DNA from: Clostridia bacterium
GTDB lineage: Bacteria; Bacillota; Clostridia; Christensenellales; CAG-138
Length of the DNA stretch: 64,000 nucleotides
NCBI GenBank assembly: GCA_017524445.1
Contig: JAFXVP010000072.1
Coordinates: forward strand, 15,183-79,182
Reading direction: 5' to 3'
In this document: in pieces, positions 25,259 through 58,602 of the stretch
How positions within the stretch are numbered: position 1 is the stretch's first letter
Layout of the letters: the number at the start of each line of letters is the position of its first letter
Notes under the pieces: generated by a model
The model's input: only the letters and a program-made list of their open reading frames with translations
Databases searched by the model: none
What the model was told of the DNA's origin: nothing
Program-made: the position numbers and the translations under genes

Positions 25259-25287
25259 TTGTCATATGACGTGATCTGTGATATACT
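25259..25287 (+). promoter_or_regulatory. Sigma-A-type promoter for the L,D-transpeptidase gene
   Basis: TTGTCA (25259-25264), 17-nt spacer, TATACT (25282-25287), about 60 nt upstream of the start codon. Confidence 0.45.
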
Positions 25288-25347
25288 GTCCTTACCGCGG
25301 ATCGAAGGATCCGGCGGTCCGATCAACCGAAAGAGAGGGAAAACCGT

Positions 25348-33984: not shown

Positions 33985-35388
33985 ATGGACGGAAGCATTA
34001 CCGCCACGTCGTCGGGCAATTTGACAGCGTTTTTCACAAATATGATCGGCACGCTTGCCGTAATCCTCGTGCTTGCCGCATTCATCAGCGGCAGCGAACT
34101 CACCTCCAGATTTTTCGGTTCCAAAAACAGTTGGAAATATTCGCTCTTCGTCGGTGTGCTCGGAGGTGTTTTCGGCATTTACGGCACGATGACCGGTCTC
34201 GAATTGAACGGCGCGATCATTTCGGTCCGCGACATCGGACCGATGCTTGCCGGCTTCACGGGCGGTCCGCTCGGCGGATTGATCGCCGGCGTCATTGCGG
34301 GCGTTCACCGGTACTTTGTCGGATCAAAGGACTCGTCGACCGCACAGCTCGTCACGTATGCCTGCATCATCGCGACGGTCTGCATCGGCGTCATGTGCGG
34401 CATTCTCTCCCGGAAGTTCCGCGAGAGGCTGAAAAAGCCGTGGTGGGCGTTTCTCATCGGCGTTCTGATGGAGATCTTCCATCTATCGCTCTTTCTTCTC
34501 ATCGTCAAGCCGTTCGACACGGCGCTCGGTGTTGTGAAAGCGATCTTTCTGCCTTTCATTCTGGTCAATGCCACGGGCTTTACGCTGATGATCACGATGA
34601 TCGTTTATCTGGAAAAGCAGCGTGCGATCGCCCTCGAACGCTCGCGTCTCAAAACGGAGCTCGAGGTCGCGACCGTCATTCAACGCTCGCTGCTGCCGCC
34701 CATTACAAAGGATTATCCGAACAGGTCCGAAATCGGGATCGCCGCTTCCATGGATCCGGCGAAGGAGGTCGGCGGCGATTTTTACGACGTCTTCTTCGTG
34801 GATCCGAATCGGCTCGCTTTTGTCGTTGCGGACGTTTCCGGCAAGGGGATCCCCGCTGCGCTGTTTATGGCAACGTCAAAGACCTCCATTCAAAACTGCG
34901 TGCGCGACTATCCCTCCCTGTCCGAAGCCGTCGGGATCGCAAACGACAGCCTCTGCCGCAACAATACGGCACAGATGTTTGTGACCGCATGGATCGGCGT
35001 TCTGCACCTTCAGACCGGTGAACTGACATTTGTCTGCGCCGGGCACAATCCGCCTGTGTTGATCTCAAACGGAACAACGGAATTCATCAAGCGCAGAAGC
35101 GGCTTCGTGCTTGCCGGAATGGAGGGTATGAAATACCGTGAACAAACCCTGACGCTGAAAAAAGGCGATTGTCTGTTCCTCTATACCGACGGCGTAACGG
35201 AAGCCGAAAACGGCTTGCACGCGCTTTTCGGAGAGGAACGCCTTGCCGTCAGTCTTGCACATGCAAGCACAAAAACGCCGGATGAGATCCTATCCGACGT
35301 CAAGACCGCCATCAGCGCACACGTCGGCGGCGCCGAGCAGTTTGACGATATCACAATGCTGTGCATCAACTATCGGGGCGCGGAATAA
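33985..35388 (+). CDS. Membrane-anchored PP2C-type (SpoIIE-family) serine phosphatase with 5TM LytS/YhcK-type sensor domain
   Basis: 467 aa. The N-terminal ~200 aa are multi-pass hydrophobic. The C-terminus has GGDFYDV...FVVADVSGKGIPAALFM...LYTDGVTEA...DDITMLCI, the SpoIIE/PP2C motifs. Confidence 0.85.
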   Translation: MDGSITATSSGNLTAFFTNMIGTLAVILVLAAFISGSELTSRFFGSKNSWKYSLFVGVLGGVFGIYGTMTGLELNGAIISVRDIGPMLAGFTGGPLGGLIAGVIAGVHRYFVGSKDSSTAQLVTYACIIATVCIGVMCGILSRKFRERLKKPWWAFLIGVLMEIFHLSLFLLIVKPFDTALGVVKAIFLPFILVNATGFTLMITMIVYLEKQRAIALERSRLKTELEVATVIQRSLLPPITKDYPNRSEIGIAASMDPAKEVGGDFYDVFFVDPNRLAFVVADVSGKGIPAALFMATSKTSIQNCVRDYPSLSEAVGIANDSLCRNNTAQMFVTAWIGVLHLQTGELTFVCAGHNPPVLISNGTTEFIKRRSGFVLAGMEGMKYREQTLTLKKGDCLFLYTDGVTEAENGLHALFGEERLAVSLAHASTKTPDEILSDVKTAISAHVGGAEQFDDITMLCINYRGAE

Positions 35389-35495
35389 TGCCGCTTTACG
35401 GCAAATGCAATCAGAGATAAAGCAGGGCGAAGCTGAATGGCTTCGCCCCGATGTTTTGTGCTGCATGATCCGTTGTTGATCGTTTCGGGATCGTA
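35372..35495. repeat. Direct repeat, left copy (SpoIIE 3-prime end + terminator hairpin + degenerate remnant of the small-peptide gene 3-prime end)
   Basis: Aligns with 47193-47322. atc(g/a)gggc(g/c)cggaataatgccgcttt(a/t)cggcaaatgcaatcagagataaagcagggcgaagc... continues to ...gttgatcgt(t/g)tcgggatcgta. The minus-strand remnant encodes ..PYDPETINNG with no start codon. Confidence 0.85.
35425..35448. terminator. Hairpin terminator shared by the convergent SpoIIE and MATE-kinase genes
   Basis: GGGCGAAGC-tgaatg-GCTTCGCCC. T-rich flanks are weak on both sides. Confidence 0.5.
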
Positions 35496-35520
35496 CGGAC
35501 GTTTCGCGTGCCCGATGCTT

Positions 35521-37251
35521 CTAAAGCCGGATATACGTTTTGTTCAGTCCGATCAGGCGTTTATAGTCCACGCTCGCCGCGACGGAGCGGATCATGCCGA
35601 TGTGATCCGTCGCATACGGCTCGGGCTGCTCGCAATGGTAAACGAGCGGATCAAACGGACTGCCGTCGTCGGTTACCGACAGCAGCAGATCATTTCCGGA
35701 AGCGCGGACGATCACATCAAAACGTACCGTCTTTCCGGCGGAATGTTCGATCGAATTCACCATAATCTCTTCTGCGGCGATCGCGACAAACATGGCTTTC
35801 TTTTCGTCAGCGCCGCCGCCGAGCAGCGATTTATGGATCTGCTCAACGGCCTGCGATACGGTGCTGCGGTCTGCGGAAAGCTGCAGCAGTTCCTTCGGAA
35901 GCTCCTTCGACGGTTCCTGTTTCCGGCGCACGTTTTCGATGCGGAACAGCCGTCCCTTCTCCAGGATCAGCACAGCAAGGAGCGTAAAGAGCTCCGCCGC
36001 GGAAAACGCCGTCCATACGCCGTCGATCCCCCAAATCATGCTCAAAAGCAATGCGCAAGGCACGATTGCCGCAAGCCCGTTCACCACTGAGATCACCGTT
36101 GACAGCCAACGTTTTTCCACTGCCATATAGAAATACAGCAGCAGGAAGTTCAGTGCCGTTCCCGCAAGACTGAACGCGAAAATCCGCACCGCGCGGATGA
36201 CCAGCGCACGCACGGCTTCGTCGTGCATGCCGAACAGGGATGCGATCAGATTCGACGCCGCTTCCAGCAGGATCAGCCCGACCGCCACACAGATCGCAAG
36301 CACGATCCTCGCGCGGCGAACCGCGATCCGCGCGCCGGTAAAGTCCCGTTCGCCGTAGTACACGCCGAGGATCGGGACCATGGTCTGCGCCGAGCCGGAA
36401 ATGAACATGGACATGAACATCAGGCAGTTCGTGCAGACCGAGAATGCCGCAACGCCCGTCGCGCCCTGCAGCCGCGAAACAAGGTTGTTGATGAACATGA
36501 TCTTGATCGCGACCAGTCCGACGCCGAGCGCGGTCGATACGCCGGTCTTCAGGATCATCGGGATCTCGCGAACCGCGCCTTTCAGCCGGAATTTGACGGT
36601 GCGCCGTTTGGTCAGCAGATAGAACATCGACAGTCCGAGACCGATGATGTTGGCAAGCACCGTCGCGAGCGACGCCCCTCCGATGCCCATATTGAAGAAG
36701 TGAATGAAGATCACATCAAACACAAGGTTCAGAAGATTCGCGGAAATGACCGCGATCGACGTGATCTTTACACATCCCTCGGCACGCATCAGATGGCAGA
36801 GTGCGGTCAGAAACAGCATGATCGGCGTACCCCAGACGAGGTTGCGATAGTACGCGGTGACATATTCCGTTGCCGAGGCGTCGCTGATCAGAACGCGGGC
36901 GATGCTGTTCATAAAGATCGCCTGCAGCACGGCAAACAGTACGCCCGTACCGATCACGAGCATCAGCATCGCCGTATACAGGCGGTTTGCCCGCTCGGTC
37001 TCTCTTCGTCCGAGTGCGACCGAAATGCAGCTTGCGGCGCCGAGTCCGAACAGCGCTCCGAACGTGGAGATCAGCTGCGAGATCGGAACACAGGCATGCA
37101 CCGCTGCAAGGCACGTTGTCCCGAGCAGCGAACTGACAATGATCTCATCGACAATGAACGACAGCGACGCCGACATCATGTTGAGGACCGTCGGGAAAAA
37201 GAATTCCCGGAATTTTCGGTCGATCAGTTTTCGATTGCGAATCAGTTCCAC
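35521..37251 (-). CDS. MATE-family efflux transporter fused to a C-terminal RsbW/SpoIIAB-like anti-sigma serine kinase (HATPase_c) domain
   Basis: 576 aa. GTG start with an AGGAAGGA RBS, 22 nt after the NRPS stop. The N-terminal ~440 aa form 12 hydrophobic segments typical of MATE. The C-terminus has AAEEIMVNSIEHS (N-box), VTDDGSPFDP (G1-like) and MIRSVAASVDYKRLIGLNKTYIRL. Confidence 0.7.
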   Translation of the reverse strand: MELIRNRKLIDRKFREFFFPTVLNMMSASLSFIVDEIIVSSLLGTTCLAAVHACVPISQLISTFGALFGLGAASCISVALGRRETERANRLYTAMLMLVIGTGVLFAVLQAIFMNSIARVLISDASATEYVTAYYRNLVWGTPIMLFLTALCHLMRAEGCVKITSIAVISANLLNLVFDVIFIHFFNMGIGGASLATVLANIIGLGLSMFYLLTKRRTVKFRLKGAVREIPMILKTGVSTALGVGLVAIKIMFINNLVSRLQGATGVAAFSVCTNCLMFMSMFISGSAQTMVPILGVYYGERDFTGARIAVRRARIVLAICVAVGLILLEAASNLIASLFGMHDEAVRALVIRAVRIFAFSLAGTALNFLLLYFYMAVEKRWLSTVISVVNGLAAIVPCALLLSMIWGIDGVWTAFSAAELFTLLAVLILEKGRLFRIENVRRKQEPSKELPKELLQLSADRSTVSQAVEQIHKSLLGGGADEKKAMFVAIAAEEIMVNSIEHSAGKTVRFDVIVRASGNDLLLSVTDDGSPFDPLVYHCEQPEPYATDHIGMIRSVAASVDYKRLIGLNKTYIRL

Positions 37252-37273
37252 TGTATCCTTCCTTTCTGTTCCG

Positions 37274-46180: not shown

Positions 46181-46207
46181 GATGGGAACCTCCTGAATAA
46201 GTATCTT

Positions 46208-46849
46208 TTACGGTTCATATTGTTCCGTTCGTCCCGGAAAGGGATCATAAGGCGAACAAACAGTCAGTACATGATCGTCAATCGATCGGGTGAAAAAGCG
46301 AAGCGACACGCAGTCATAGCGCGCACACCGGGCGACGACACGCGTTCCGAATGAAACACGGATCTCCTTAGGATCGAGCGAAAGTCCCGTCCCGAACAGC
46401 TTCATCAGACTCTCTTTCACGGTCCACAGCGCCGTATAAAAGCGCTCCCGATCGCCGTCCGGCGCAGCGGCAAGCTCTTCCGGCAGAAACACGCGGCGCA
46501 GCACGTCCTCTTCGAACGGACGGATCGGCTCCACGTCAATGCCGACCGGCTTATCGGACACCGCGATCGCCGCAATGCGTCCGCCGTGCGACAGGTTGAA
46601 CCAGATATCGTCACGATCGCGAAGGTACGGCTTTCCGTACGGCCCATACGCGATCTCCGCGTTTGGAACGCCTGCCCGTTTCAATCCCTCGCAAAGCAGA
46701 AGTCCCGCGCAGAGCGACAGCCGCCGGTCCCGTTCAAACCGGAACGACCGGATTTTTTGCTGACGTTCGGAAGGCATGCTGTCAAACGCGCGGCTGAACG
46801 TTCCCGGATCGGAAACCGCGTCCGCATACATCCACAGCACCACGTTCAT
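46208..46849 (-). CDS. Sfp-type 4'-phosphopantetheinyl transferase
   Basis: 213 aa, RBS AAGGAGG. GKPYLRD...FNLSHGG...VGIDVEPI...WTVKESLMKLFGTG are the PPTase motifs. 27 nt upstream of the NRPS. Confidence 0.85.
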   Translation of the reverse strand: MNVVLWMYADAVSDPGTFSRAFDSMPSERQQKIRSFRFERDRRLSLCAGLLLCEGLKRAGVPNAEIAYGPYGKPYLRDRDDIWFNLSHGGRIAAIAVSDKPVGIDVEPIRPFEEDVLRRVFLPEELAAAPDGDRERFYTALWTVKESLMKLFGTGLSLDPKEIRVSFGTRVVARCARYDCVSLRFFTRSIDDHVLTVCSPYDPFPGRTEQYEP

Positions 46850-46899
46850 GCCGACCTCCTTCGTCCGGGCGGATCGCCAAAATATATTCTTTCGAGTAT

Positions 46900-46928
46900 A
46901 TTATACAATCTAAAACGAACGGCGACAA
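46900..46928 (-). promoter_or_regulatory. Promoter of the PPTase-NRPS-MATE operon
   Basis: Minus strand: TTGTCG (46928-46923), 17-nt spacer, TATAAT (46905-46900), about 50 nt upstream of the PPTase start. Confidence 0.5.
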
Positions 46929-47026
46929 GAACTATTCTTCTTTTTCTTTCACATGATTATTTTATGGCACGATGTGGCGTTTTTTCCGGCGCGGCGAATA
47001 GCGGATAACGGTTATGAACAGCATTT

Positions 47027-47062
47027 AACCTCTTTTGACCAATCAGTCAAAAGAGGTTAATA
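47027..47062. promoter_or_regulatory. Perfect 15-bp inverted repeat (TTAACCTCTTTTGAC-caatca-GTCAAAAGAGGTTAA), operator-like
   Basis: Read directly from the sequence. No flanking T-run on either strand, so it is unlikely to be a terminator. It lies ~100 nt upstream of the NRPS-operon promoter. Confidence 0.5.
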
Positions 47063-47104
47063 TCTATGTATCAAAATAAGCGTCCCAATACGGAAAATCA
47101 CAGT

Positions 47105-47166
47105 GATTTTGATACAAATGCACCCACGACAAAATCCGGGTGCATCTTTGGATTATGGGTGCATCC
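47105..47166. repeat. REP-like hairpin repeat, copy B
   Basis: attttgatacaaATGCACCCacgacaaaatCCGGGTGCATctttggattatgggtgcatcc parallels 61514-61575. Confidence 0.75.
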
Positions 47167-47192
47167 TAAGCGAAATCTCATCTGATTATGTG

Positions 47193-47322
47193 ATCAGGGC
47201 CCGGAATAATGCCGCTTTTCGGCAAATGCAATCAGAGATAAAGCAGGGCGAAGCCAAATGGCTTCGCCCTGCTGCTTTGTGCGCTTTAACGCTTATCCTT
47301 TGTTGATCGTGTCGGGATCGTA
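47193..47322. repeat. Direct repeat, right copy (degenerate remnant of SpoIIE 3-prime end + terminator hairpin + intact 3-prime end of the small-peptide gene)
   Basis: See 35372-35495. Here gatcagggcccggaataa mimics the SpoIIE terminal codons ..tatcggggcgcggaataa, while the peptide-gene end is intact. Confidence 0.85.
47242..47273 (-). terminator. Strong hairpin terminator ending the ABC / giant-protein / peptide operon
   Basis: AGCAGGGCGAAGCC-aaat-GGCTTCGCCCTGCT, a 14-bp perfect stem. It starts 20 nt after the peptide stop and is followed on the minus strand by TTATCTCTGATT. Confidence 0.7.
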
Positions 47323-47466
47323 GTCATGCTCGTCAACGGGCGGGACCTCGTCCCATTCGCCAGCGCCGGTGATCTTCTTGAGATCCTCGAACGCGACTTC
47401 TTCCGGTTCGATCTTCATTTCTTCGGCGACCGCTTCCGGTGCCTTCTTTTCCTTCTTGCGTTCCAT
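47293..47466 (-). CDS. 57-aa precursor peptide with double-glycine-type leader (absent from the ORF track)
   Basis: Hand translation: MERKKEKKAPEAVAEEMKIEPEEVAFEDLKKITGA|GEWDEVPPVDEHDYDPDTINKG. RBS AAAGGAG 8 nt before the ATG at 47466. It lies 46 nt downstream of the giant gene and is followed by a strong terminator. V-xxx-DL-xx-I-x-GA matches the leader consensus recognised by C39 peptidase ABC exporters. Confidence 0.6.
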   Translation of the reverse strand: MERKKEKKAPEAVAEEMKIEPEEVAFEDLKKITGAGEWDEVPPVDEHDYDPDTINKG

Positions 47467-47512
47467 TTTGTATGCTCCTTTCTTTTCGGATTGCTTATTT
47501 CAGTTCAACCGT

Positions 47513-50500
47513 TTACGGCTGCTGTACGGGGAACACGTTAATCAGACCGACCACGTAGCGCAGGATCGCCGCCGCGTCCGCCGCGGTAACGCTGCCGTCG
47601 CCGTCGACTTCCGCATTCAGTGCGCCGCGCTTTGTGATCGTCGACAGTCCGACGATTGAGCGCAGGACGATTGCCGCGTCTGCTGCCGTGATATATCCGT
47701 CGACATTCGCGTCGCCGTACAGGATCGCTTCGAAGGTGATGCTGCCGTCCGTTGTCGCTGCTGTCAGTTCAACGACCGTTCCCTCTGTTGCAAATCCCAT
47801 TGCGCTGCCGTTTCCGAGCGTGTTTTCGGTGAACGTGATGTCCGTCTTCTCCGCTTCGCCGATCTTGGCGAACCAGAGCGTCAGCACTTCGTCGCCGTTC
47901 TCAACAAGCTGTTCGGTTTCGGACGCCCAGACTGCGGAGAGCTTGCCGTTCTGATCGTTGACCGTCCAGTCAAATGCACCTTCCGTCTTGCGTAGCACGA
48001 GGACCGCGGGATCATACTCGAGGAAGATCTGCGCGCTGCTCACATAGGAGCCGCCCTCCGGCAGATCCTCAACGTGTACGTCGTAGCGATACAGGATCTC
48101 GCCGTCGATGATCTCGTATTCGTCGTTGCCGACGACGTCTTCGCCGGCGAACGTCACGGCAGTCGGCGCTTCGGGCTGCGGCTTGGGCGTGACGGTGATC
48201 GTTGCCTGTACCGTCGTACCGGTTGCTACATGCGTCGCGTAGAGCGTCGTTGTGCCTCCGCCGATACCGAGCACCTTGCCGTCGCTGATCTGCGCGATTT
48301 CGAGGTCCTCGACCGTATATGCTACTTCGGCGCTGTTGCCGAACTTGCTGCCGAGATCCATTGCAAAGACGATATCCGCGGTTTCATCTTCCTTGACCAT
48401 GACGTCCTCGAGCGTCATGTTCATCGGCTGCGTCTGCACAAAGCAGTCATATGCAATGTCGCCGATGAATTGACGACCGGTGTAGTCGATATCATCATAG
48501 GTCTCGACGTATTCTCTCGTGACGGCGAACGAAGCGTCGATGAAGCCGTAGCGCTGCACCATTTCGATCGTGACCGGGACTGCGACGTCGATCTCGCGGG
48601 TCTCGCCCGGCTGGATCGGCGTCTCGAACGGCACGTGTACCAGCGTAAGCGCATCTTCGTCGACATCCATGATCAGGTTCTCGGGGCCCTTCCAATCGAT
48701 CGTCAGCATGTCGCCCGCATCGGACGGCGCGTTGCCGACGTTGGTGATCTCGAACGAGGCACGGAAGCCGTCGTTGGTCTGATAGGTCACGATGTTCTCA
48801 ATGCGGTAATCCGGATCGGAAAGCAGGGGCTCGGAGACGTACTCCGCCGTGTTGGTAAAGTAGACGCCCTCCTCCTTGAGCTCCTTCGTGACCGCCTTGA
48901 ACGTCAGTCCTTCAACGTTGTCGGGCATCGTATACGCGAATTCGTGGATCCTTGCGTTGTTCGGACGCAGCGCATCGGTCGATTCGATCGTGCCGATCTG
49001 CGTTTCGGTTCCGTTCTTATCCACCGCATACAGCGTCAGCATATAGCCCGGCGCCGTGGTCAGACCGTTGTTGGACGCCTTGACTGTGATGACGGTATCC
49101 TCGCCGCCGATCGGATGATCGAGCGTCAGAGCGGATGCCTCGCCGTCCTCGTTGGGCTGCCGGATTTCGATCTCCTCGGGTTCGACTGCGCCGCAGGGCT
49201 CCATCACGGTCGCAGCCAGCGTCATTTCGGTGATCACAAGCGGGTCAAAGTCGACTTCGCCGTTGTAGTTGATGCCGTCCTCGGCAGGGGTATCCGTCTC
49301 CGGAATGACCAGCTCCTGCCTGAAGCGGTTGTGGACCACCATGAGGTTCTCGCCCGTCATGGTGACGGCGAGCTCGTCGTTGAAGTATCCGTCTCTGGTG
49401 AGCTGATACGGCTTCGACCAGCCGGTGCTGCCGAGATCTGCGTCGGGCGCGTCGGCCTCCTCGTCGGTCAACACCCTGCCGCTGGAGATCAGGCTCGTTG
49501 CAAAGATCTCCTGCGAAACGGCCGCGTTCTCATCCGCCGGATCGCCGTCGACAACGGTGTCGGTCCAAAGAATGAACAAGCTGCCGTTGGCGTCCTCGAC
49601 CACGCGGTAGTCTGCGGACTGTCTGGATTCGTTGCCGTCCTTGGGTCTCAAACCGGTCTCGATGGGATCCGCGTAGGTCGAATCGCCGCCGTCGCCCTTG
49701 ATCTTCAGCGTGCCGTCCGGATTGATGCCCTGCTGCATAAGCTGCGTGACGTCGATGTAGACGACGCCTTTGTTGTCGCGGTACCAGAACAGCTTGGTGT
49801 GCGTCGCTTCCTCCTCCGTGCTGAGCTGCGCGTCCCTGGAGCGGAAGAACTGCGGCAGCGTGTCCGCCACGTTGTCGTCGGTGATGCGGATACGGTACTT
49901 CGTCTCATGCTGCTCGAAGTTGTAGACCTGCAGATACAGCTCCTTGTCTTCGTAGGTGTCGTTGCTGCCGTCCATATCCACGGTGTAGGCATAGACCGCA
50001 AGACCGTTGTAGCCGATCGCCGTGAAGTCCGGGATCGCATATGCGACCGTGCTGCCGTTCTCATCCGTGTACGTCGGACCTGCCAGCGAGCGCTGACCGC
50101 CGAAGTTTTCGATCATGTACTGTTCGTTTTCAAGATTGCCGTGGAACTCGGCAAAGTAGAAGTTGTTGAAGAGCCACCCTTCGGGAACCACTCTGCCGTC
50201 CGTATCGACGTCCTCTTCCGCGTTGTAGATCATGTAGAACACGCGGCAGTCATTGACGTACGGGTTCGCGAGCGTCGCGCCGTCCATGGTGGTGTTGCCG
50301 CTCTTGACGTAGTAGACGATCGCGTCGCCGCTGATCTTGTCGCAGACTACGGTCGGCATGCAGTCGTAATAGCCCTTCTCGACGCCGTCCTTGATGCGAT
50401 GGTCGTTGGTGATCTTGACCGGCTCGTCCATCGTGATCGAACCGTCCTCGCCGATTGTCGCAAGCGCCGCATAGACTTCCATGCTGTTCAGGTAGTCCGT

Positions 50501-53500
50501 AACCTCTGTATTCTCGTCGATATCGTTGCTGCCGGTGGAGACCCACGCGACCAGCACGTTGCCGTCCTTCGTTTCCGCGATGGAGGGCTGGAAGTCCGCC
50601 GTATCGTCCACGGAGACCGGGACCGGGTTGCTCCAGACGCCGTTCTTGTAGGTCGCGAGCTTCAGCGTGGTGCGCTGATATTCGCCCTTCGCGTTGTCGC
50701 TGTCGATGAACGCAAGTACGACGGTGCCGTCATCCAGGGTAATGAGCTGCGAATCCGCGCGTTCATACGCGTTCTCCGCAAGGATCTGCGTGGAGCCCGG
50801 CGCGAACGCGTAGCGCGTCGCGTTCTTTCCGCCGACCCAGGTGGAATCCGTTCCGCTTCCCTGACGGAGGCGGAAGCCCTGCGACGAGGTCGACTTCCTC
50901 ATGCCCGGCTCCTGATTGCCGGCCACATCGTCCGGATTATTCACATAGTGCTTGAAGAATCCGAACGGCTTGCCGGCAAGCTCTACCACGACCGGAACCG
51001 AGAACAGGAACAGGTCGACGATGATGCCCGCCGAGACGCTGAGGTACAGACCGAACGCACCATGCTTGTTGTTCGGTTCCCAGGCGCCTAAGACGTTGCC
51101 TCTTGCCACCCCGCGGATGCCGATGATGTCGCAAAGTCCTATGCCGAGGCAGAACTGGACATAACCCTGCACGCGGAGGCCGCCGTCGAAGCGGGTCCCC
51201 GAATTTGCATAGTCGACCTGTGACTGCTGCGCCTCGTCCATCGAAACGGACGTCTCCAGATCGCAGGCGCCGCCGATGAACGCCATGAGGTAGGCGTTGA
51301 TCTCGATGCCGAAATACCCCGGCACGAATATGACCGGGATCATGGTGTAAAACGCCACCTTGAACCCGCCGTTCACGCAGAAATATGCGCCCAGACCGGC
51401 GAATTTCAGCACCGTCTTTTCGATGCCGTTCGCGTAGATCGTGAAGTAATGGAAGTTGAAGTACGCGCCGATCATGACGTCAAATCTCCACTGCGGACTG
51501 CCGAAGCTCGCAAGGGACGTCTTTTGATTCCAGATATTCTTCATTATTGAGGCAGTTTTATGCAGCTCGCCGACCTGGTTCCAGGATTGCTTGAGACCTG
51601 CCCAGAACGTGCCGAACGGATTGTCCATGGAGAAGGTGCTCTTCCAGTAAACTTCCGATCCGTCTTCGCCCGGCACGTCCGAGTGGAAGGAACTGATATG
51701 CGTTCCCTTGACCGCGTCATAGATCTGCATAGCCGACACGCCGATATACAGGCGGTAGCCCTGCGGGATGCGCATGCAGCCGACCGTTACGAACGGGAAC
51801 GGAAGCGCCATGCCCGTGCTGCCGATCAGCGGCAGCTCCGGATAGGATATCGTCACCGGGCTCGTGAAGGTCTGCTTCGGCGGGATCTCCATGGCGAGCG
51901 GGTTGTAGAAGTTGATGCCGGTATAGACGTCGGAATACTGGTAGCTGTCCGCGAAGTTTCCGATGACCGGGTCGATCTCGCCGATCGCCGTGATCTTGTT
52001 CGTGACGCTGCCGGCGTTGACGTCCGCCTGCGTGACGTAATACCAGTACTTGACCGTGACGGATTCGTCGAGATCCAGAACCGACAGATCGGGCGAGGTG
52101 ACCTGCTCCAGATCGGTCAGCGACTGGTTGATCCTGATGTTGCCGAGACGAACGCCGCCGGTATTCGTGATCCTGATCGTATAGGTGATCACGTCTCCAA
52201 CCGAAAGGCCCTCTGTCGGATCCGCCGTCGCTTCGACCGTCAGCTCGGGTTTCGGTTCTTCCGCTTCGCGCGTATTCGGATCGACGACGGAACCGTTTGC
52301 GCCCGTTGTGACGATGACTGTCGCTTCGTTGGAGGTGACCGTCTCGGGCTCCGGCAGCAGTTCGACCGCTTCCTGCAGATCGGTCAGAAGCGCGTCCGCC
52401 GCGGACATACGGTTGGTGACGACTCGGATATACAGCTTGTCGCCGGGGTCGACCGAGAATCCGCCCTCCGTTTCGGGCTCGGGCTCGTCCGGATCAGGTT
52501 CAGGCGCGTCCGGATCGATCTCGATCGGAGCGGCGATTTCGAATTCGACCGTGGACCGGAAGATGTATACGCCTCTCGACTCATCGTATTCATCGGGTTT
52601 GACAAGCTCGTATTCACCCTTGTAGACGTCGTTCGCGTCGTAAACCACGAGCTGGATCCCGAGAGGCGCCTCGACCTTTCTCGTTTCGAGAACGCCCCTC
52701 GGCGTGGTCAGGGAGACTGCATACGGACGCGGACTGATCTCGATCGTCATCTGCGCATTCTTGCCCATCGGAAGGATCGGAATGAACTTTCCGTCGGCAA
52801 TCTCGTACGCCGGATCGCTCATCACGCCGGTGATCTGGATCCCCTTGAAGATGTTTGCCGTGACCGGGCTGACGCCGTTCGGGAAATTCGCCGAGATGTC
52901 GATCGCGGCGTCATTTTCTCCCGTCGGCATGGGGACCTCGTAGAGCATGGCGGTGCCGTTGACGGAAACGAGGTAGCGCAGATATTTGTTCTCCCCGCCC
53001 GTGCCCGGGACCGGTCCCGCGGTCACTTTACCGTTCTGGTCCGCCGTGCCGCCCGCGGAGCCCGCGGTGATCACCGCGCCGACCGCCGGACGGTTCGACA
53101 TGCTGCCCGCGCCTCTGTCCTTCAGGTTGTAATCCATGTACCGGAAGGTACCCGTCAGCGTAACGGAGCCGTGCTGCGGCGCCGCCGTCAGGTCGATGAT
53201 GTTCCGGTCGGGCAGCGTGCCGGGCTTGAAGTACAGCGTGTTCTGCGTGTACGTGCGGGCGACGTTGCGGTCCGTCCAGACCGCGACCCAGCCCTTTTGC
53301 GGATTCACGGTGATCGGATAAAGCTTGCCCGCGACCGTCTTGTCCTCGCTGGCAAAGGTGTAGTAGGTGTAGCCCGCTTCAACGGTCGTATCGCCCGCCC
53401 GCTTGAGCAGACCGGCGGAAAGGCTGGTCGTATCGAATTTTGCAAGATCGGAGGTCTTGACGCGGACCGTGATCTTGTTGTCCTTTTTCTGGATATTCGG

Positions 53501-56338
53501 CTCAACCACGACCTCCACCGCGCAGAGCCGCTTCGTATTCGGTTCGCCTGCGATGTAGATCGGCTGGTCGTCCCAGAACACCCGCGGATCGGCTTCGTAA
53601 TCCGCTTCGGCGCCGCTGACCTTATAATACTGGTTAGCGCCGACGACCTTATTGAAATTGTTCGCGTCGGGATCCAGGATCTCGATGGAAGTCAGCGCAA
53701 GCTTGTCGCCCTTATGGAAGCTGACGTCTCCCGCCTTGATCTCAACGGTCTGTCCCGCCGGAACCGTATATTCCATCGTGCTGATGGTGAACTTCACGTC
53801 GTAGCTGTACGGATTCCGCAGAGTGATCTTTGAATCGATGTAGTCGAACGCCGGCTTGATGTACAGCTTGCTGTAGTTTGCATAGCCGATCGTATTTGCA
53901 AGCCCTGTGTTTTCGACGATCGAATCTCTGAAATACCGATCGCGCCATCCGCCGAACATCTCATTCATCATCTCGTTCGAAAGCGTGAACGTAATGGAAT
54001 GGTTGGATGCGCTTTGGTTGCTGCCGAGCTGATAGATCGTCGTGCCGTTTTCCCGGACCCAGTTCAACTCCTTCATGTAAGCGAACTGCGTGACGTTGGA
54101 GTCGGAGACGTCCTGCACGGTGATGCTGTCGTCCGCAATGAGCAGCACGTCCTTTCCGCCGTCGACAATGGACGATTTCGTCGCCACGCCGGCATCGCCG
54201 TTCCGGGCGCCGTTCTCCTGCAGGAACAGAAGCCCGTCCGCCTGCTTCAGGTTAAACTGGAACATGCGCTTGATCGGCTGAACTCTGTAGATATACAGAT
54301 GGTTGCAGTCGTCGCAATGACCGTGGTTGTAGAAGCCGATCCACTGCGGTCTGACGCCGTCAGGTGCGAGGTCAATGATGTATTTGCTCGGGAACATGTT
54401 CAGGGTCTTCTCGCCGAAGCTCGCTTTGGAATCATAAGAAAGCTCCTTTGCACCGTCCTTCGAACTCCTGGTCATTGTTTTCATCCAATCGGTAGGCTCG
54501 TCTCCGCCCTCAAACGCGACCTTCATGTATGCGTGATCGCCCGTGCGGGCCCACGTAACCTGCGCGCCCGCGATCGCGTACGGAGAGTTCTTGCTGCCGA
54601 TCTGATAGATAACGCCTACAAGGCCCTTGCGGTCATACCAGAACGAGTTGTCGGTCCACATCAGGTCCCATGCCTGTTTCTTGCTGTCGTACTTATCGTT
54701 GCCACCGAACTTGTTATTTTCGTGGCCGTGATAATACGGCGCGTCAATTAGGACTTCGTCCATCAGCTCGGGTCTGCTGAGTTCACGCCGCACCGGCTCC
54801 GTGCCGTCCTTCGTGTCGCTGACAGTTCTCTTGTCGGAAACGCTGCCGGGGTCCGTGGTGAAAGCGTCTTCCGCTTTCTTTTCCGAATAGGTGCCCTTCA
54901 TCGTGACCGTCGCGTGATCGACGCCGATCGTGCAGCCCGCGTCCGCCTCAAGGGAAAGACCGAACGAAGCGTCGCCCTTGAAGTACTCCGTGCGAACGGG
55001 AATAGTGACCGTGAGCGTCGGAATGCCGAACGGGAAGATGAGGGTCTGATCGACCTCGGAATAGTCCCTGCCCATGACCGCATTGCCTTCGCCGGTGGTC
55101 TTTACGGTGCCGCCGACGACGGAATTGATCGCGCCGGTACGCTCGACCGTGACCACGACGCTTTCCTCGCCGGGCGTATGGACGTATTCGACCTGACTGA
55201 AGGAAAGCACGCACTCCTCGGGTTCTTCGTCGTCGAGGATCGTGAACGCGCATGCGCTTGCCGCGCTGTTCGTGGTCGTGCCGCTCGGCGCGCCGAGCAT
55301 CAGGTAGAACATCCTGTTGCCGTCGCTCCTATCGTTGTCCAGCGGAATGATCTCGATATACTTGGAGGTTTCGCCTGGCGCAAAGGTGATCTCGACGTAT
55401 GCGCCGACAACGGCGTCGGTCAGGACGTTCGCGATCTTCTGCAGATCCTGGAACAGATCCGTGCTCGCGGTCAGCCGCTGCGAAATCGCGTCCTCGCCGG
55501 TAAACAGGTTCGACGCCCGCTGCACGGGATCGAGACCGTCATCCGGTTCGCCGATCGTCACGGTTTCGGATCCGTCGGTGACGACCACGTTGGGATCGGG
55601 CTCGATCGCCGGTTCCTCTGCGGGTTCCTCCGCCGGTTCTTCTGCGGGTTCCTCCACCGGTTCCGCTGCGGGCTCTTCCGCCGGTTCCGCTGCGGGCTCT
55701 TCCGCCGGTTCTTCTGCGAGCTCTTCCGCGGGTTCCTCCGCGGGCTTCTCCGCATCCTCGCCGTACAGTTCCTCTACCGCTTCGGCATAGGGGTTTTCGT
55801 CGCCGTACTTTTCGGAAAGGCCGCTCTGTTCCTCCAGGAACTCCAGCGCTTCTTCAGTGCTCTCCTGAAGAGCCGCCAGCGCTTCGGGATCGTTCATGAT
55901 CTCCTCGATCGCCGCTTCGTAATCCTCTAGCGGCATCTGGCCGTACTCGGAATCCTCCATCATCTCCGCCAGGGACATGTTGTAATCCGGGTTTACGACC
56001 TCCTCCTCGGTGCCGCGTACACGAACGATATAGTCCTCGCCGTATTTCGCCGTCATGTCGGAGATCCTGACGAGCGCAGTGGATTCGCTTTCCGCACTTC
56101 CGCCGCGTCCGATGCGCAGCAGATAGATCGCGTTGGCGTTTTCTTCGATCTCAACCGCCGGTGCGGTCAGATAGAAGACGTCGTGCATAAGGACGTCTTC
56201 CCCGAGCTCGATCTCGGGGATGAAAACATCCTGCCGCTCGTCCTTCACGGCGTCCGCGATCGCTTTCATCGGCAAAATGCCGATCAGCATCAGCAGTGCG
56301 ATCGCCACGCTCAGGACTTTGGTCCATTTGTGTGTCAT
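47513..56338 (-). CDS. Giant secreted multidomain surface protein (Calx-beta-like repeats, acidic PEEPA linker, Ig-like/CARDB-like modules, hydrophobic Gly/aromatic module, Big_2, cohesin-like and C-terminal dockerin)
   Basis: 2941 aa, RBS AAGGAGGA. Signal peptide MTHKWTKVLSVAIALLMLIGILPMKAIADA. Calx-beta-like ..GEDYIV.. and ..GRDYSEVDQTLIFPFG... Big_2-like IAQISDGKVLGIGGGTTTLYATHVATGTTVQATITV. Dockerin duplicated Ca-binding loops: GDANVDGYITAADAAIVLRSIVGL and AEVDGDGSVTAADAAAILRYVVGL. Confidence 0.8.
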   Translation of the reverse strand: MTHKWTKVLSVAIALLMLIGILPMKAIADAVKDERQDVFIPEIELGEDVLMHDVFYLTAPAVEIEENANAIYLLRIGRGGSAESESTALVRISDMTAKYGEDYIVRVRGTEEEVVNPDYNMSLAEMMEDSEYGQMPLEDYEAAIEEIMNDPEALAALQESTEEALEFLEEQSGLSEKYGDENPYAEAVEELYGEDAEKPAEEPAEELAEEPAEEPAAEPAEEPAAEPVEEPAEEPAEEPAEEPAIEPDPNVVVTDGSETVTIGEPDDGLDPVQRASNLFTGEDAISQRLTASTDLFQDLQKIANVLTDAVVGAYVEITFAPGETSKYIEIIPLDNDRSDGNRMFYLMLGAPSGTTTNSAASACAFTILDDEEPEECVLSFSQVEYVHTPGEESVVVTVERTGAINSVVGGTVKTTGEGNAVMGRDYSEVDQTLIFPFGIPTLTVTIPVRTEYFKGDASFGLSLEADAGCTIGVDHATVTMKGTYSEKKAEDAFTTDPGSVSDKRTVSDTKDGTEPVRRELSRPELMDEVLIDAPYYHGHENNKFGGNDKYDSKKQAWDLMWTDNSFWYDRKGLVGVIYQIGSKNSPYAIAGAQVTWARTGDHAYMKVAFEGGDEPTDWMKTMTRSSKDGAKELSYDSKASFGEKTLNMFPSKYIIDLAPDGVRPQWIGFYNHGHCDDCNHLYIYRVQPIKRMFQFNLKQADGLLFLQENGARNGDAGVATKSSIVDGGKDVLLIADDSITVQDVSDSNVTQFAYMKELNWVRENGTTIYQLGSNQSASNHSITFTLSNEMMNEMFGGWRDRYFRDSIVENTGLANTIGYANYSKLYIKPAFDYIDSKITLRNPYSYDVKFTISTMEYTVPAGQTVEIKAGDVSFHKGDKLALTSIEILDPDANNFNKVVGANQYYKVSGAEADYEADPRVFWDDQPIYIAGEPNTKRLCAVEVVVEPNIQKKDNKITVRVKTSDLAKFDTTSLSAGLLKRAGDTTVEAGYTYYTFASEDKTVAGKLYPITVNPQKGWVAVWTDRNVARTYTQNTLYFKPGTLPDRNIIDLTAAPQHGSVTLTGTFRYMDYNLKDRGAGSMSNRPAVGAVITAGSAGGTADQNGKVTAGPVPGTGGENKYLRYLVSVNGTAMLYEVPMPTGENDAAIDISANFPNGVSPVTANIFKGIQITGVMSDPAYEIADGKFIPILPMGKNAQMTIEISPRPYAVSLTTPRGVLETRKVEAPLGIQLVVYDANDVYKGEYELVKPDEYDESRGVYIFRSTVEFEIAAPIEIDPDAPEPDPDEPEPETEGGFSVDPGDKLYIRVVTNRMSAADALLTDLQEAVELLPEPETVTSNEATVIVTTGANGSVVDPNTREAEEPKPELTVEATADPTEGLSVGDVITYTIRITNTGGVRLGNIRINQSLTDLEQVTSPDLSVLDLDESVTVKYWYYVTQADVNAGSVTNKITAIGEIDPVIGNFADSYQYSDVYTGINFYNPLAMEIPPKQTFTSPVTISYPELPLIGSTGMALPFPFVTVGCMRIPQGYRLYIGVSAMQIYDAVKGTHISSFHSDVPGEDGSEVYWKSTFSMDNPFGTFWAGLKQSWNQVGELHKTASIMKNIWNQKTSLASFGSPQWRFDVMIGAYFNFHYFTIYANGIEKTVLKFAGLGAYFCVNGGFKVAFYTMIPVIFVPGYFGIEINAYLMAFIGGACDLETSVSMDEAQQSQVDYANSGTRFDGGLRVQGYVQFCLGIGLCDIIGIRGVARGNVLGAWEPNNKHGAFGLYLSVSAGIIVDLFLFSVPVVVELAGKPFGFFKHYVNNPDDVAGNQEPGMRKSTSSQGFRLRQGSGTDSTWVGGKNATRYAFAPGSTQILAENAYERADSQLITLDDGTVVLAFIDSDNAKGEYQRTTLKLATYKNGVWSNPVPVSVDDTADFQPSIAETKDGNVLVAWVSTGSNDIDENTEVTDYLNSMEVYAALATIGEDGSITMDEPVKITNDHRIKDGVEKGYYDCMPTVVCDKISGDAIVYYVKSGNTTMDGATLANPYVNDCRVFYMIYNAEEDVDTDGRVVPEGWLFNNFYFAEFHGNLENEQYMIENFGGQRSLAGPTYTDENGSTVAYAIPDFTAIGYNGLAVYAYTVDMDGSNDTYEDKELYLQVYNFEQHETKYRIRITDDNVADTLPQFFRSRDAQLSTEEEATHTKLFWYRDNKGVVYIDVTQLMQQGINPDGTLKIKGDGGDSTYADPIETGLRPKDGNESRQSADYRVVEDANGSLFILWTDTVVDGDPADENAAVSQEIFATSLISSGRVLTDEEADAPDADLGSTGWSKPYQLTRDGYFNDELAVTMTGENLMVVHNRFRQELVIPETDTPAEDGINYNGEVDFDPLVITEMTLAATVMEPCGAVEPEEIEIRQPNEDGEASALTLDHPIGGEDTVITVKASNNGLTTAPGYMLTLYAVDKNGTETQIGTIESTDALRPNNARIHEFAYTMPDNVEGLTFKAVTKELKEEGVYFTNTAEYVSEPLLSDPDYRIENIVTYQTNDGFRASFEITNVGNAPSDAGDMLTIDWKGPENLIMDVDEDALTLVHVPFETPIQPGETREIDVAVPVTIEMVQRYGFIDASFAVTREYVETYDDIDYTGRQFIGDIAYDCFVQTQPMNMTLEDVMVKEDETADIVFAMDLGSKFGNSAEVAYTVEDLEIAQISDGKVLGIGGGTTTLYATHVATGTTVQATITVTPKPQPEAPTAVTFAGEDVVGNDEYEIIDGEILYRYDVHVEDLPEGGSYVSSAQIFLEYDPAVLVLRKTEGAFDWTVNDQNGKLSAVWASETEQLVENGDEVLTLWFAKIGEAEKTDITFTENTLGNGSAMGFATEGTVVELTAATTDGSITFEAILYGDANVDGYITAADAAIVLRSIVGLSTITKRGALNAEVDGDGSVTAADAAAILRYVVGLINVFPVQQP

Positions 56339-56415
56339 TTTATTCCTCCTTATCCTTTATTGCCTCTTTTTCTCTATGAAAAACCCGCGTAACGGTGTTT
56401 TCCCCCATTTGATTA

Positions 56416-58593
56416 TCAGGTCAGCTGCCGACCGACCATGCCCGCGAAAAAGCCGTTCCTGTTCAGCAGCTCCTCATACGTCCCCTCTTCGACGATATTG
56501 CCGCCGTCGATCACAATGATCCGGCTGCAGTTTCTGATCGTCGAGACCCGGTGCGCGATCACGATGCGCGTGCAGTTCAAGGCGTCGAGCGCGTCGGTCA
56601 CCTTCTTCTGCGTGATGTTGTCCAGCGCGGAAGTCGCTTCGTCGAGCAGCAGCAGCTTCGGCTTTGCCGCGATCGCCCGCGCAAGCAGGATGCGCTGTTT
56701 CTGCCCGCCGGAAAGCGTGCCGGATCCTTCCGAAACGAACGTCCGCATGCCCATCGGCATCTCGCGGATGTCGTCGGCGACGCCCGCCTTCTCCGCTGCG
56801 TCCCACGCGTCTTCCATCGAAAGCCCCGGCGTCATCACGGCGATGTTGGTGTAGATATCCCCCGGGAACAGTTCGCTTTGCTGCAGCACCGTTCCGATCT
56901 TCTTATGCAGGGAGGAAAGATTCAGCTTGCTCAGGTTCTTTCCGTCGTAGAAGATCGTGCCGGTCTCCGGCTGCTCGAAGCCGAGCAGCAGCCGCATCAG
57001 CGTGGATTTTCCGCAGCCGCTCTTTCCGACGATCGCGACGTATTCTTTCGGCTTGATTTTAAGCGACAGATCCCGGAAGATGTACGGCGATTCCTTGTCA
57101 TAGCGGAAGGAAACGTGATTCAGTTCGATGCCGCCGTTAAGCTTTGTGACGATCTCCTGTTCCTGCGTCTCCTCCGGGACCGTTCTCAGGATCGGCTCGG
57201 CGATCTTCAGAAGCGGACGGGTCTCATGCGCCGAAAACGTAACGCCGTATGCGGAGGACGTCATGCCGATGATCGCGCCGAACGCCGCCGAAAACGCGAA
57301 ATAAGACGACGCATCAATGTGATTTTTGAGCGCCAGCCAATACGTCAGGATCGTGGAAAGCAGCCCGATCCCCATGACGATCGCGCTGTTGATCCGTACC
57401 AGGATCGGCGGGCGGTAGGTAAGCCCCGCCTTTTCCGCGTACAGCTTCATCCACCGCGCAAACATGCGCTTCTCCGCACCGACCAGACGGATCTTCCGGA
57501 CGCCGGTGATCGCGGAATAGCTGAAACCGGATTCCTCCGCGTCGACTTCCAGACTCTTCTCATAGAATTTCCGTCTCGTGCGCACCGTGATCAGCGATAC
57601 GACCAGCATGAGCAAAAGATAGATGATCGCAACCGGCAGCAGACCGGGCGCGTAACGCCAGATCTCGTACAGGTACAGGACCGACGTCGCCAGCGTCAGC
57701 GCAGTCATTGCGGCGAAGCTGACATACTCCTTGCTGAACCGGACGATGGCGTCCATACGCACTTTCAGTTCGCCTGCGCCGAACCGTCCGAAAAACCGGG
57801 TCGGCAGCGAAAGGAGCCGCATCATGACCGCCGCGCGCACCGCGTTTTCCGTCTTCAGCTCCTTCTTCTTGGAAAAGAGCCCTTTCGCGACGCCGAACAG
57901 GTGCGAAGCGATCAGAATGCAGAGCATCGAAACGGAGACGCCGATCAAAAGATCGGGACGTCCCGTGGAAAGCACCGCGCCCGTCATGACCTTTGTGATA
58001 TAGGGCAGCATCAGCCCGATCACCAGAATGTTGCCCTGCAGAAGGATGTTCACGATCCACTCGCTCAGCGGAATGACGCTGCGGATATAGCGGATCAGAT
58101 CCATCGGCTCGAGCGCCTTCTGCGGGAACGGTCGGAAAAAGCTCAGCGCCTTTGCCTCGAACCGCGCGGCGTTCTTCCGGTTGACCTTCACGCGCCGCTT
58201 CGTCTCCGGATCGGTAAACACGTATCCGCCGAGCTTGCCCGGAAGCAGCGCAACGGGAACGCCGCCTTCTTCGGTAAACGCAAGCATCGGTCCGAACGCG
58301 TCGCGATACCAGCTTTCCTTCAGCTCGACATCGCGGAACATAAGACTGTACGCCTGCTGACAGTACTCCGCCATCTCTTCCGTGCTGACGAAGTTCTCCG
58401 GGATATCGAGCGGTTTCATTTCAAAATGCAGCAGGATCTCGTCGATCGCGTTTTTCGCGACCGTCCGCTCGTCTTCCTGCTTGAAAACCCTGCGCGTGCC
58501 GAGCACAACGCCGGCGATCTCATCGAAAGAGTTTTCGAGGATCCGCTGGTCTGCGCTTTTCCGTTCTTTGATCTGTTCTTCAAACAAACTCAT
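56416..58593 (-). CDS. ABC transporter permease/ATPase with N-terminal regulatory-like domain (NHLM-bacteriocin-system type, non-peptidase partner)
   Basis: 725 aa. Walker A GKSGCGKST, signature LSGGQKQR, Walker B LLLLDEATSALD. The N-terminal ~150 aa precede six TM segments. Confidence 0.8.
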   Translation of the reverse strand: MSLFEEQIKERKSADQRILENSFDEIAGVVLGTRRVFKQEDERTVAKNAIDEILLHFEMKPLDIPENFVSTEEMAEYCQQAYSLMFRDVELKESWYRDAFGPMLAFTEEGGVPVALLPGKLGGYVFTDPETKRRVKVNRKNAARFEAKALSFFRPFPQKALEPMDLIRYIRSVIPLSEWIVNILLQGNILVIGLMLPYITKVMTGAVLSTGRPDLLIGVSVSMLCILIASHLFGVAKGLFSKKKELKTENAVRAAVMMRLLSLPTRFFGRFGAGELKVRMDAIVRFSKEYVSFAAMTALTLATSVLYLYEIWRYAPGLLPVAIIYLLLMLVVSLITVRTRRKFYEKSLEVDAEESGFSYSAITGVRKIRLVGAEKRMFARWMKLYAEKAGLTYRPPILVRINSAIVMGIGLLSTILTYWLALKNHIDASSYFAFSAAFGAIIGMTSSAYGVTFSAHETRPLLKIAEPILRTVPEETQEQEIVTKLNGGIELNHVSFRYDKESPYIFRDLSLKIKPKEYVAIVGKSGCGKSTLMRLLLGFEQPETGTIFYDGKNLSKLNLSSLHKKIGTVLQQSELFPGDIYTNIAVMTPGLSMEDAWDAAEKAGVADDIREMPMGMRTFVSEGSGTLSGGQKQRILLARAIAAKPKLLLLDEATSALDNITQKKVTDALDALNCTRIVIAHRVSTIRNCSRIIVIDGGNIVEEGTYEELLNRNGFFAGMVGRQLT

Positions 58594-58602
58594 AACGGCA
58601 CC

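Follow-up and report, generated by a model that had tools for sequence, protein, structure and literature searches.

Peptides that are exported behind a double-glycine (GG) leader are usually classed as bacteriocins, as ribosomally synthesised peptides that are modified after translation (RiPPs) or as pheromones. The NHLM three-gene export set, represented by the families TIGR03794, TIGR03796 and TIGR03797, was described by Haft et al. 2010 (PMC2887384). For the C39 peptidase LahT150, mutagenesis together with a co-crystal of LahT147 and leader showed that leader positions -4, -7 and -12 matter (PMC6363468). The last 13 leader residues were enough for cleavage by LahT150, a charged substitution at -4 or -7 abolished it, and GA and GS sites were cut too (PMC6363468). 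Here we describe a 57-codon gene on a stretch of 64,000 nt from Clostridia bacterium GCA_017524445.1 (contig JAFXVP010000072.1, positions 15,183-79,182 of the forward strand; hereafter the window), whose predicted product bears such a leader but fits none of the three classes. Across rumen and gut Clostridia its family is genetically locked to a surface protein of ~2,500-3,600 residues. Related loci which were compared with the window cassette are labelled L001-L030.

The peptide gene is the last of five genes on the reverse strand. The cassette and its predicted signals are as follows:

61443..61471, reverse strand: candidate promoter TTGATT-17 nt-TATAAT with a TG extension (consensus match only)
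60792..61214, reverse strand: mini HlyD-like accessory protein of 140 aa, ATG at 61214, with an N-terminal transmembrane anchor and a short beta-rich domain
58603..60795, reverse strand: ABC1, a peptidase-C39/permease/ATPase (NHLM_micro_ABC1), TIGR03796 876 bits (cut-off 853)
56416..58593, reverse strand: ABC2, a permease/ATPase without peptidase domain (NHLM_micro_ABC2-like), TIGR03797 658 bits (cut-off 709)
47513..56338, reverse strand: giant surface protein of 2941 aa with Sec signal peptide, Calx-beta, DUF7507, long-beta-hairpin, propeller and Ig-like parts and a C-terminal type I dockerin
47475..47481, reverse strand: Shine-Dalgarno sequence AAAGGAG, ending 8 nt before the ATG of the peptide gene
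47293..47466, reverse strand: peptide open reading frame (ORF), ATG start, 57 codons, product MERKKEKKAPEAVAEEMKIEPEEVAFEDLKKITGAGEWDEVPPVDEHDYDPDTINKG
47362..47466, reverse strand: leader, residues 1-35, ending ...EEVAFEDLKKITGA, with predicted cleavage after Gly34-Ala35
47296..47361, reverse strand: core, residues 36-57, GEWDEVPPVDEHDYDPDTINKG, the predicted product
47242..47273, reverse strand: terminator-like hairpin with a 14-bp stem and 10 GC pairs, beginning 19 nt past the peptide stop

The ORF of 57 codons is genuine and conserved and encodes a small peptide. The initial annotation of the window had proposed it as an unannotated GG-leader precursor whose gene closes an operon with a C39 exporter, and both the leader rules and the catalytic residues of ABC1 described below fit this proposal. 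The strong ribosome-binding site, the tight spacing and the 14-bp-stem terminator that it had noted were likewise found, with AAAGGAG placed as above, a gap of 46 nt to the stop of the giant gene upstream (47513) and the hairpin at 47273..47242. Of the 11 related loci checked, 10 had a GGAG-type Shine-Dalgarno sequence 6-9 nt ahead of the annotated peptide start, the exception being L022, where the annotated start overlaps the giant ORF. Comparison with the homologue in L001 gave a synonymous distance (dS) of 1.25 and a non-synonymous distance (dN) of 0.13, and within residues 23-47 there were 11 synonymous changes and 1 non-synonymous change. This synonymous excess and the dN/dS of 0.10 indicate that the frame is translated and under purifying selection.

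A word-indexed search returned 15 close homologues of the peptide with 77-98% identity, 12 of them 57 aa long, among which residues 27-47 (EDLKKITGAGEWD.VPPVDEH) were near-invariant and the N-terminal leader and C-terminal tail were variable. Exhaustive searching of 1.84 billion representative proteins with a hidden Markov model (HMM) gave 23 hits to the family, and a profile word search gave 81 clusters. When a narrower peptide alignment was run against metagenome contigs, one true locus (L016) was found; the metagenome contig match L017 was rejected as a false positive on a high-GC antisense strand. There was no match to the peptide on plasmids by tblastn, and the window peptide matched nothing in Pfam and NCBIfam even at E up to 10. 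The family is absent from both databases and usually goes unannotated, with one relative named 'bacteriocin-like protein' in a JGI record. Within the library searched, full-text literature searches with the core motif strings, as well as literature searches combining peptidase-containing ABC transporters (PCATs) with Calx-beta, SLH or giant protein, found nothing relevant.

The cassette is plausibly transcribed as a single unit, since the gaps between its five genes are short (-4, 9, 77 and 46 nt), no strong terminator lies within it and a promoter-like site stands upstream. Between 47.2 and 61.3 kb the hairpin behind the peptide gene was the sole strong terminator-like site on the reverse strand, and weak hits in this interval numbered 14, with 12.3 expected from shuffled sequence. 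The candidate promoter is located upstream of the first operon gene and downstream of a further terminator-like hairpin (61664..61642), which would end the gene preceding the cassette. An Rfam scan of the whole window found nothing, which gives no riboswitch upstream of the operon.

The peptide appears to carry a canonical double-glycine export leader. A cut after G34-A35 puts I32 at -4, L29 at -7, D28 at -8 and V24 at -12, as the initial annotation had read it, and the peptide ORF was the only one of 588 window ORFs of 25-150 aa to fit the strict GG-leader pattern. It thereby has what a C39 substrate requires, that is Gly at -2 with Gly, Ala or Ser at -1 and hydrophobic residues at -4, -7 and -12. 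Family statistics for leader and core were taken over 86 distinct members. Position -2 was Gly and position -4 was V, I or L in all 86, position -7 was Leu in 85, and position -12 was L, V or I in 84; position -1 was mostly G (61) or A (21), with S in 3 members and T in 1, and positions -8 and -9 were mainly acidic. The divergent member in L015 (...LFALKPEDLEKVTGG/TLDDVPPVDEH..., the stroke marking the predicted cut) also showed a canonical leader. Relatives of the peptide gave weak matches to 24 families, of which 20 are bacteriocin, lantibiotic, pheromone or RiPP precursor families, including ComC, TIGR01847, BlpC, lactococcin G-beta, plantaricin C and RaxX; the other four are unrelated to precursors, with all matches weaker than E 0.01. 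TIGR01847 (bacteriocin_sig) weakly matched 6 of 26 relatives, 2 of them above the 15.7-bit cut-off, and did not match the window peptide.

A transporter with a C39 domain that is competent as far as its catalytic residues tell is encoded in the same operon. ABC1 contains the Pfam domains Peptidase_C39, ABC_membrane and ABC_tran, and its C39 domain was 61% identical to LahT147 (PDB 6MPZ) over 144 ungapped residues (E 5.5e-60). Its residues Q25, C31, H105 and D121 align with Q21, C27, H101 and D117 of LahT, among them the catalytic Cys and His which the initial annotation had pointed out, and the same Gln/Cys/His/Asp set is kept in ABC1 of L024, L026 and L027. ABC2 scored just below its NCBIfam cut-off, and an ABC2 homologue was found beside the giant gene in 13 related loci. 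The mini-HlyD matched TIGR03794 (NHLM HlyD) over profile residues 1-54 alone (E 2.2e-10). Genes of 127-160 aa occupied its position in L024, L027 and L030, with sequence similarity seen for L024 and L027, and L026 had a gene of 297 aa there. By these family matches the exporter genes are the three-gene export set of Haft et al. with a truncated HlyD, and the homologue search proposed in the initial annotation placed relatives of the peptide beside NHLM-type transporters in related loci. The precursor would very probably be recognised and cleaved by the C39 domain and then exported.

A small acidic protein whose gene directly follows that of a large secreted protein is often a chaperone or an immunity factor. 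On this general ground the peptide might instead stay inside the cell as a small acidic chaperone or regulator for the giant protein, its GG-like motif being incidental. We consider this very improbable, as the most conserved part of the peptide is the C39 signature itself, with the near-invariant positions -2, -4, -7 and -12 given above, and as a C39 exporter with intact catalytic residues is always linked to it, as in L024, L026 and L027 (the linkage being seen also in L030).

The strongest clue, which was missed by the initial annotation, is the invariant pairing of the peptide gene with the gene for the giant protein. Each of the 16 distinct loci that were examined has the peptide gene directly 3' of a giant homologue. 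Among them, upstream sequence was available for L001, L007, L012, L013, L015, L016, L018, L020, L022, L028 and the window. The converse search, which started from the giant protein, yielded L024, L025 and L026, chosen for their long contigs, whose giants were 45%, 34% and 32% identical to that of the window and each of which encoded a family peptide of 48-49 aa immediately downstream. Upstream of the giant gene L024 and L026 had an HlyD-like gene, a C39-bearing ABC1 and ABC2, and L025 had a contig-truncated gene followed by ABC2. The closest relative, L027, contained five cassette genes identical in kind to those of the window, and DNA homology between the two spanned exactly window positions 61215..47299, from mini-HlyD to peptide, with both flanks unrelated. 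Gene order was permuted in L030 (152-13429; giant, peptide, 160-aa gene, ABC1, ABC2), where all five genes were contiguous and the adjacency of giant and peptide was kept despite the permutation. Four further peptide/giant pairs may be deduced, since contigs of identical length appeared in the peptide and giant searches.

The genes downstream of the cassette varied by locus and included CTP synthase, SpoIIE, nitroreductase, another giant gene, MerR, HipA and others, which indicates that the cassette is a self-contained unit of ~14 kb. Flanking genes differed even among relatives with 92% identical giants, and the conserved gene content consisted of mini-HlyD, ABC1, ABC2, giant and peptide alone.

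Pfam matches of the giant protein were restricted to Calx-beta, DUF7507 and dockerin, and phmmer against PDB matched the dockerin only. A search with the protein returned ~47 homologues of 2501-3600 aa with 28-92% identity. Every giant inspected showed a typical Sec signal peptide at the N-terminus, and C-terminal anchors varied from dockerin in the window to SLH in most and LPXTG in one, with none recognised in some. An AlphaFold2 (AF2) model of residues 1460-2600, with a mean predicted local distance difference test score (pLDDT) of 72.9, consisted of three parts: a beta sheet of very long strands, a beta-propeller and Ig-like domains. The propeller, at about residues 1850-2360, resembles sialidases (Foldseek E 5.6e-12) and integrin-alpha ectodomains.

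Some further features of the giant protein were observed. Residues ~1616-1793 (window 50900-51500) are hydrophobic and Gly-rich, and in the AF2 model they form seven beta-strands, each 15-29 residues long. Modelled alone, the long-hairpin domain (pLDDT 71.5) had no significant PDB neighbour; the model shows a weak likeness to pore-forming hairpins and outer-membrane barrels, which would be odd for a surface protein of a monoderm. A 12-nt tandem repeat with 13 overlapping copies (window 55573-55788) encodes a PAEE/PVEE low-complexity tract near the N-terminus, the length of which is likely to be variable between strains. A toxin-immunity pair similar to WapA/WapI was considered for giant and peptide and rejected, because the C-terminus of the giant is an anchor and the small protein bears an export leader.

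The predicted core is, as stated in the initial annotation, 22 aa long, very acidic and free of Cys. It contains 8 acidic residues and 1 basic residue (net charge -7, His not counted), with an isoelectric point (pI) of ~4.05, a grand average of hydropathy (GRAVY) of -1.55 and a monoisotopic mass of 2526.08 Da. For family cores the medians were 22 aa in length and -5 in net charge (n=86), and Cys was present in 3 of the 86. Their consensus is G[AE][FW]D[DN]VP[TPR]V[DP][EQ]Hx[YI]D, after which comes a short tail that is partly basic, and the shorter motif [FW]D[DN]VPxV..H was retained in Lachnospiraceae, Oscillospiraceae and Ruminococcus alike. About a quarter of the members have Ile or Val in place of the Tyr of the HDYD motif. 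The mature 22-mer is probably unmodified. A RaxX-like tyrosine sulfation was rejected, as the family lacks a conserved Tyr and the cassette showed no sulfotransferase.

These core properties bear directly on a possible antimicrobial role, either as an anionic class II bacteriocin or as the precursor of a new RiPP whose enzyme goes unrecognised and might be a domain of the giant protein. Bacteriocins and RiPPs are classically exported by means of a GG leader and an NHLM-type exporter (PMC2887384), the JGI name of one relative points the same way, one relative had a sub-threshold match to RaxX_RiPP (19.7 bits, cut-off 40), and large parts of the giant protein are without assigned function, among which an enzymatic domain for RiPP modification possibly lies. 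The core itself, however, is not cationic or amphiphilic like that of a class II bacteriocin, given its charge, pI and GRAVY and the acidic family median, and Cys is rare in the family. Adjacent to the peptide gene the conserved cassette contains no immunity gene, the downstream genes being variable, and no conserved cassette gene contains a known RiPP enzyme domain. Furthermore, there is one peptide copy per locus, the core is conserved, unlike bacteriocin cores, which vary, the replacement of Tyr in a quarter of the members is contrary to a conserved Tyr modification, and the nonribosomal peptide synthetase (NRPS) next to the cassette is a later insertion (see below). We therefore regard an antimicrobial as quite improbable. 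The judgement of the initial annotation that the peptide does not look like a lanthipeptide, sactipeptide or cationic bacteriocin agrees with the acidic Cys-free core and the lack of a modification enzyme. Against its broader suggestion of a signalling peptide or a new RiPP/bacteriocin class stand the conserved core and the fact that no modification enzyme, immunity gene or sensor kinase was recognised in the conserved cassette.

We place about half of our belief in a reading in which the peptide is a dedicated cargo, exported by the PCAT, that acts as ligand, cofactor or regulatory partner of the giant protein. The locus contains a real coding gene with a canonical leader, an intact cognate protease/exporter and an invariant five-gene linkage. 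On its own, the claim that the mature peptide is a ligand, cofactor or regulatory partner of the giant follows from the logic of synteny, and we advance it tentatively, at somewhat less than an even chance. The conservation of the core across Lachnospiraceae, Oscillospiraceae and Ruminococcus implies a conserved target, and the giant is favoured as this target because it is the only extracytoplasmic protein inherited together with the peptide.

In the mechanism which we propose, leader positions -12 to -4 would form a short helix, as in the co-crystal of LahT147 and leader, and this helix would set V24, L29 and I32 into a hydrophobic groove of the ABC1 C39 domain. Cys31 of ABC1 would then cut after Gly34-Ala35, and ABC1/ABC2 together with the membrane-anchored mini-HlyD would export the acidic core of 22 residues (GEWDEVPPVDEHDYDPDTINKG). 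Outside the cell the core might act on or with the wall-anchored giant protein that is encoded immediately upstream, with the [FW]D[DN]VPxV..H motif serving as its ligand, cofactor or regulatory partner and without killing other cells.

Several observations weigh against this reading. The window peptide matched no GG-leader HMM at E up to 10. The synteny of peptide and giant could reflect co-regulation instead of physical partnership. In L024, a metagenome contig whose giant protein was named Ruminococcus flavefaciens by NCBI, four extra GG-leader genes are located between ABC2 and the giant gene (7060-9987), encoding proteins of 151 aa and 499 aa with Nif11-like leaders and peptides of 70 and 77 aa. 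These extra proteins indicate that the exporter may be a general secretion route, in which case the target of the peptide need not be the giant. The 499-aa protein of L024 also suggests that PCATs might export cargo of more than 400 residues.

A further-reaching version of the ligand reading, which we find doubtful, would be a two-part extracellular apparatus of fibre-degrading gut Clostridia, in which a PCAT-secreted anionic ligand docks on the giant protein. Under it docking might take place e.g. on the sialidase/integrin-like propeller and switch adhesion, assembly or the state of the long beta-hairpins, which we hold to be doubtful to the same degree. If true, the apparatus would represent a new use of the double-glycine route, for a subunit or ligand of a Sec-exported giant and not for a toxin or pheromone.

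The region on the 3' side of the cassette contains the following features:

33417-33713, reverse strand: STAS anti-sigma antagonist, adjoining the cassette in the ancestral arrangement
33985-35388, forward strand: 5TMR-LYT/SpoIIE PP2C phosphatase, adjoining the cassette in the ancestral arrangement
35372..35495, unstranded: left duplication copy, with intact SpoIIE 3' end, terminator and degenerate 3' fragment of the peptide gene (~35460-35495)
35521-37251, reverse strand: MATE-HATPase_c_2 fusion, within the NRPS island
37274-46180, island: NRPS of 2968 aa in three modules, with three adenylation (A) domains, two condensation (C) domains and a terminal reductase
46208-46849, island: phosphopantetheinyl transferase
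47193..47322, unstranded: right duplication copy of ~130 bp, with SpoIIE 3' remnant, terminator and intact 3' end of the peptide gene

The two copies, 35372-35495 and 47193-47322, are 88% identical. In L007, L009 and L012 a single segment of ~130 bp matched both of them and represents the uninterrupted site, comprising the 3' ends of two convergent genes, 5TMR-LYT/SpoIIE and peptide, and the terminator that they share. This indicates that an island of 11.7 kb (35496-47192) was inserted and is flanked by a target duplication, with the intact peptide gene at the right-hand copy. The degenerate second copy at 35460-35495 reported in the initial annotation is thus real, but it is a scar of the island insertion and not a paralogue. 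In the uninterrupted arrangement the hairpin 47242..47273 is common to the peptide gene and the convergent SpoIIE gene. A link of the peptide to the adjacent NRPS was rejected because the NRPS is a later insertion. The MATE efflux transporter of the island is fused to a C-terminal RsbW-like HATPase_c_2 anti-sigma kinase domain, which is unusual.

A start-less fragment of the peptide gene was also found at L014:5937-6023, beside the 5' end of a SpoIIE paralogue on a separate contig of the metagenome-assembled genome RUG13494, which carries an intact cassette as well (L013). This fragment appears to be a second sign of a recombination-prone SpoIIE/peptide junction. A dispersed element similar to repetitive extragenic palindromes (REP), with tandem hairpins (TGCACCCGG..CCGGGTGCA), was present on both sides of the cassette (window 47106-47166 and 61514-61610) and had no Rfam match. 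A stretch of 186 bp (61499-61684) was 100% identical to an unrelated position of L001 (19754-19939), the surrounding genomes being 84-94% identical.

The STAS and SpoIIE genes may be a recurrent, not universal, regulatory neighbourhood of the cassette. They are relevant to the possibility that the 22-mer is a diffusible signal, i.e. a quorum or autocrine pheromone, that is sensed by a receptor outside the cassette and controls expression of the giant. We consider such a signal unlikely, and the same low probability applies to the candidate receptors, which would be, e.g., the 5TMR-LYT/SpoIIE phosphatase and its STAS partner, or else LytTR systems. A GG leader with a PCAT is the ComC/BlpC route, and family members weakly matched the ComC and BlpC models. 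Both regulatory genes adjoin the cassette in the ancestral arrangement of the window as well as in L007-L009 and L012; L024 has a STAS gene directly upstream of mini-HlyD and STAS and SpoIIE genes downstream (STAS/SpoIIE coordinates 1916-2215 and 23379-25578), and LytTR proteins are encoded close to the cassette in L020 and L026. However, the cassette is accompanied by no conserved sensor or regulator, and several loci had no regulator within 10 kb. A cognate histidine kinase and LytTR regulator are absent from the window cassette and from most related loci. GG pheromones normally diversify into pherotypes, whereas the core showed no pherotype variation across Lachnospiraceae, Oscillospiraceae and Ruminococcus; it is moreover strongly anionic and hydrophilic. 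The link to a LytTR regulon raised in the initial annotation found no support, and no LytTR regulator was present among the window ORFs scanned, the 5TMR-LYT/SpoIIE phosphatase being there instead.

The window further encodes an extracellular contractile injection system (eCIS) at ~2300-23000, with the sheath at 7798-9549 and the tube at 7277-7756, and five consecutive proteins with eCIS_core domain at 12919-22984. A link of this cluster to the peptide, also raised in the initial annotation, was rejected: the cluster is at least 24 kb away from the peptide gene, and no eCIS was found near the cassette in any related locus.

What is new in this family is that its anionic core is conserved and that it is obligatorily paired with a giant surface protein, the export mechanism being of a known kind. 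Relatives of Ruminococcus flavefaciens that anchor by dockerin or SLH are among the carriers. Should the peptide be a ligand or cofactor of the giant, a synthesisable 22-mer would offer an experimental handle on one giant surface protein among the many that are uncharacterised in fibre-degrading gut bacteria, and the known roles of PCAT exporters would be extended. A family model for the peptide would improve the annotation of carrier genomes.

Among described systems, LahA/LahT from Lachnospiraceae bacterium C6A11 is similar in its protease, with the 61% identical C39 domain and matching Gln/Cys/His/Asp, and the window leader obeys the LahT150 rules for hydrophobic residues at -4, -7 and -12 and for a GG, GA or GS site. 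LahA, however, has a long Nif11-type leader and a Cys/Ser/Thr-rich core that is modified by a lanthipeptide synthetase, whereas the window peptide has a 35-aa leader without Nif11/NHLP match, an acidic Cys-free core and no synthetase, and in its family a giant surface protein is always co-encoded. NHLP/Nif11-type precursors share the exporter families, with ABC1 above the TIGR03796 cut-off, ABC2 near that of TIGR03797 and an HlyD-like N-terminus, and the L024 cassette includes true Nif11-like GG proteins. Unlike in those systems, the HlyD homologue of the window has only 140 aa and enzymes for thiazole/oxazole-modified microcins or lanthionines are absent; neither the window peptide, with its leader of 35 aa, nor any of 26 relatives matched TIGR03793 or TIGR03798.

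The streptococcal pheromone systems ComC/ComAB and BlpC/BlpAB are comparable in their short GG leader, their C39 ABC transporter with accessory protein and their short unmodified linear product. Their peptides are cationic or hydrophobic and pherotype-variable, in contrast to the anionic core conserved across families, and the window cassette is without the conserved cognate histidine kinase or LytTR regulator. RaxX/RaxB of Xanthomonas also exports a GG-leader peptide, which is sulfated, via a PCAT, has an acidic Asp-Tyr motif and fulfils a non-antibiotic extracellular role. It differs in that the window family has no conserved Tyr and no sulfotransferase, its best relative staying at 19.7 of the 40 bits required, and in that phylum and genomic context are unrelated.

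Giant adhesins of the LapA/RTX type in Gram-negative bacteria are exported by type I secretion through dedicated ABC/membrane fusion protein exporters. The window locus appears to resemble them in that a giant protein rich in Calx-beta and Ig domains is genetically locked to an ABC transporter and an HlyD-type protein. In contrast to these adhesins, the giant of the window has a Sec signal peptide and a wall anchor, and the transporter encoded with it has a C39 protease, its apparent cargo being the GG peptide and not the giant.

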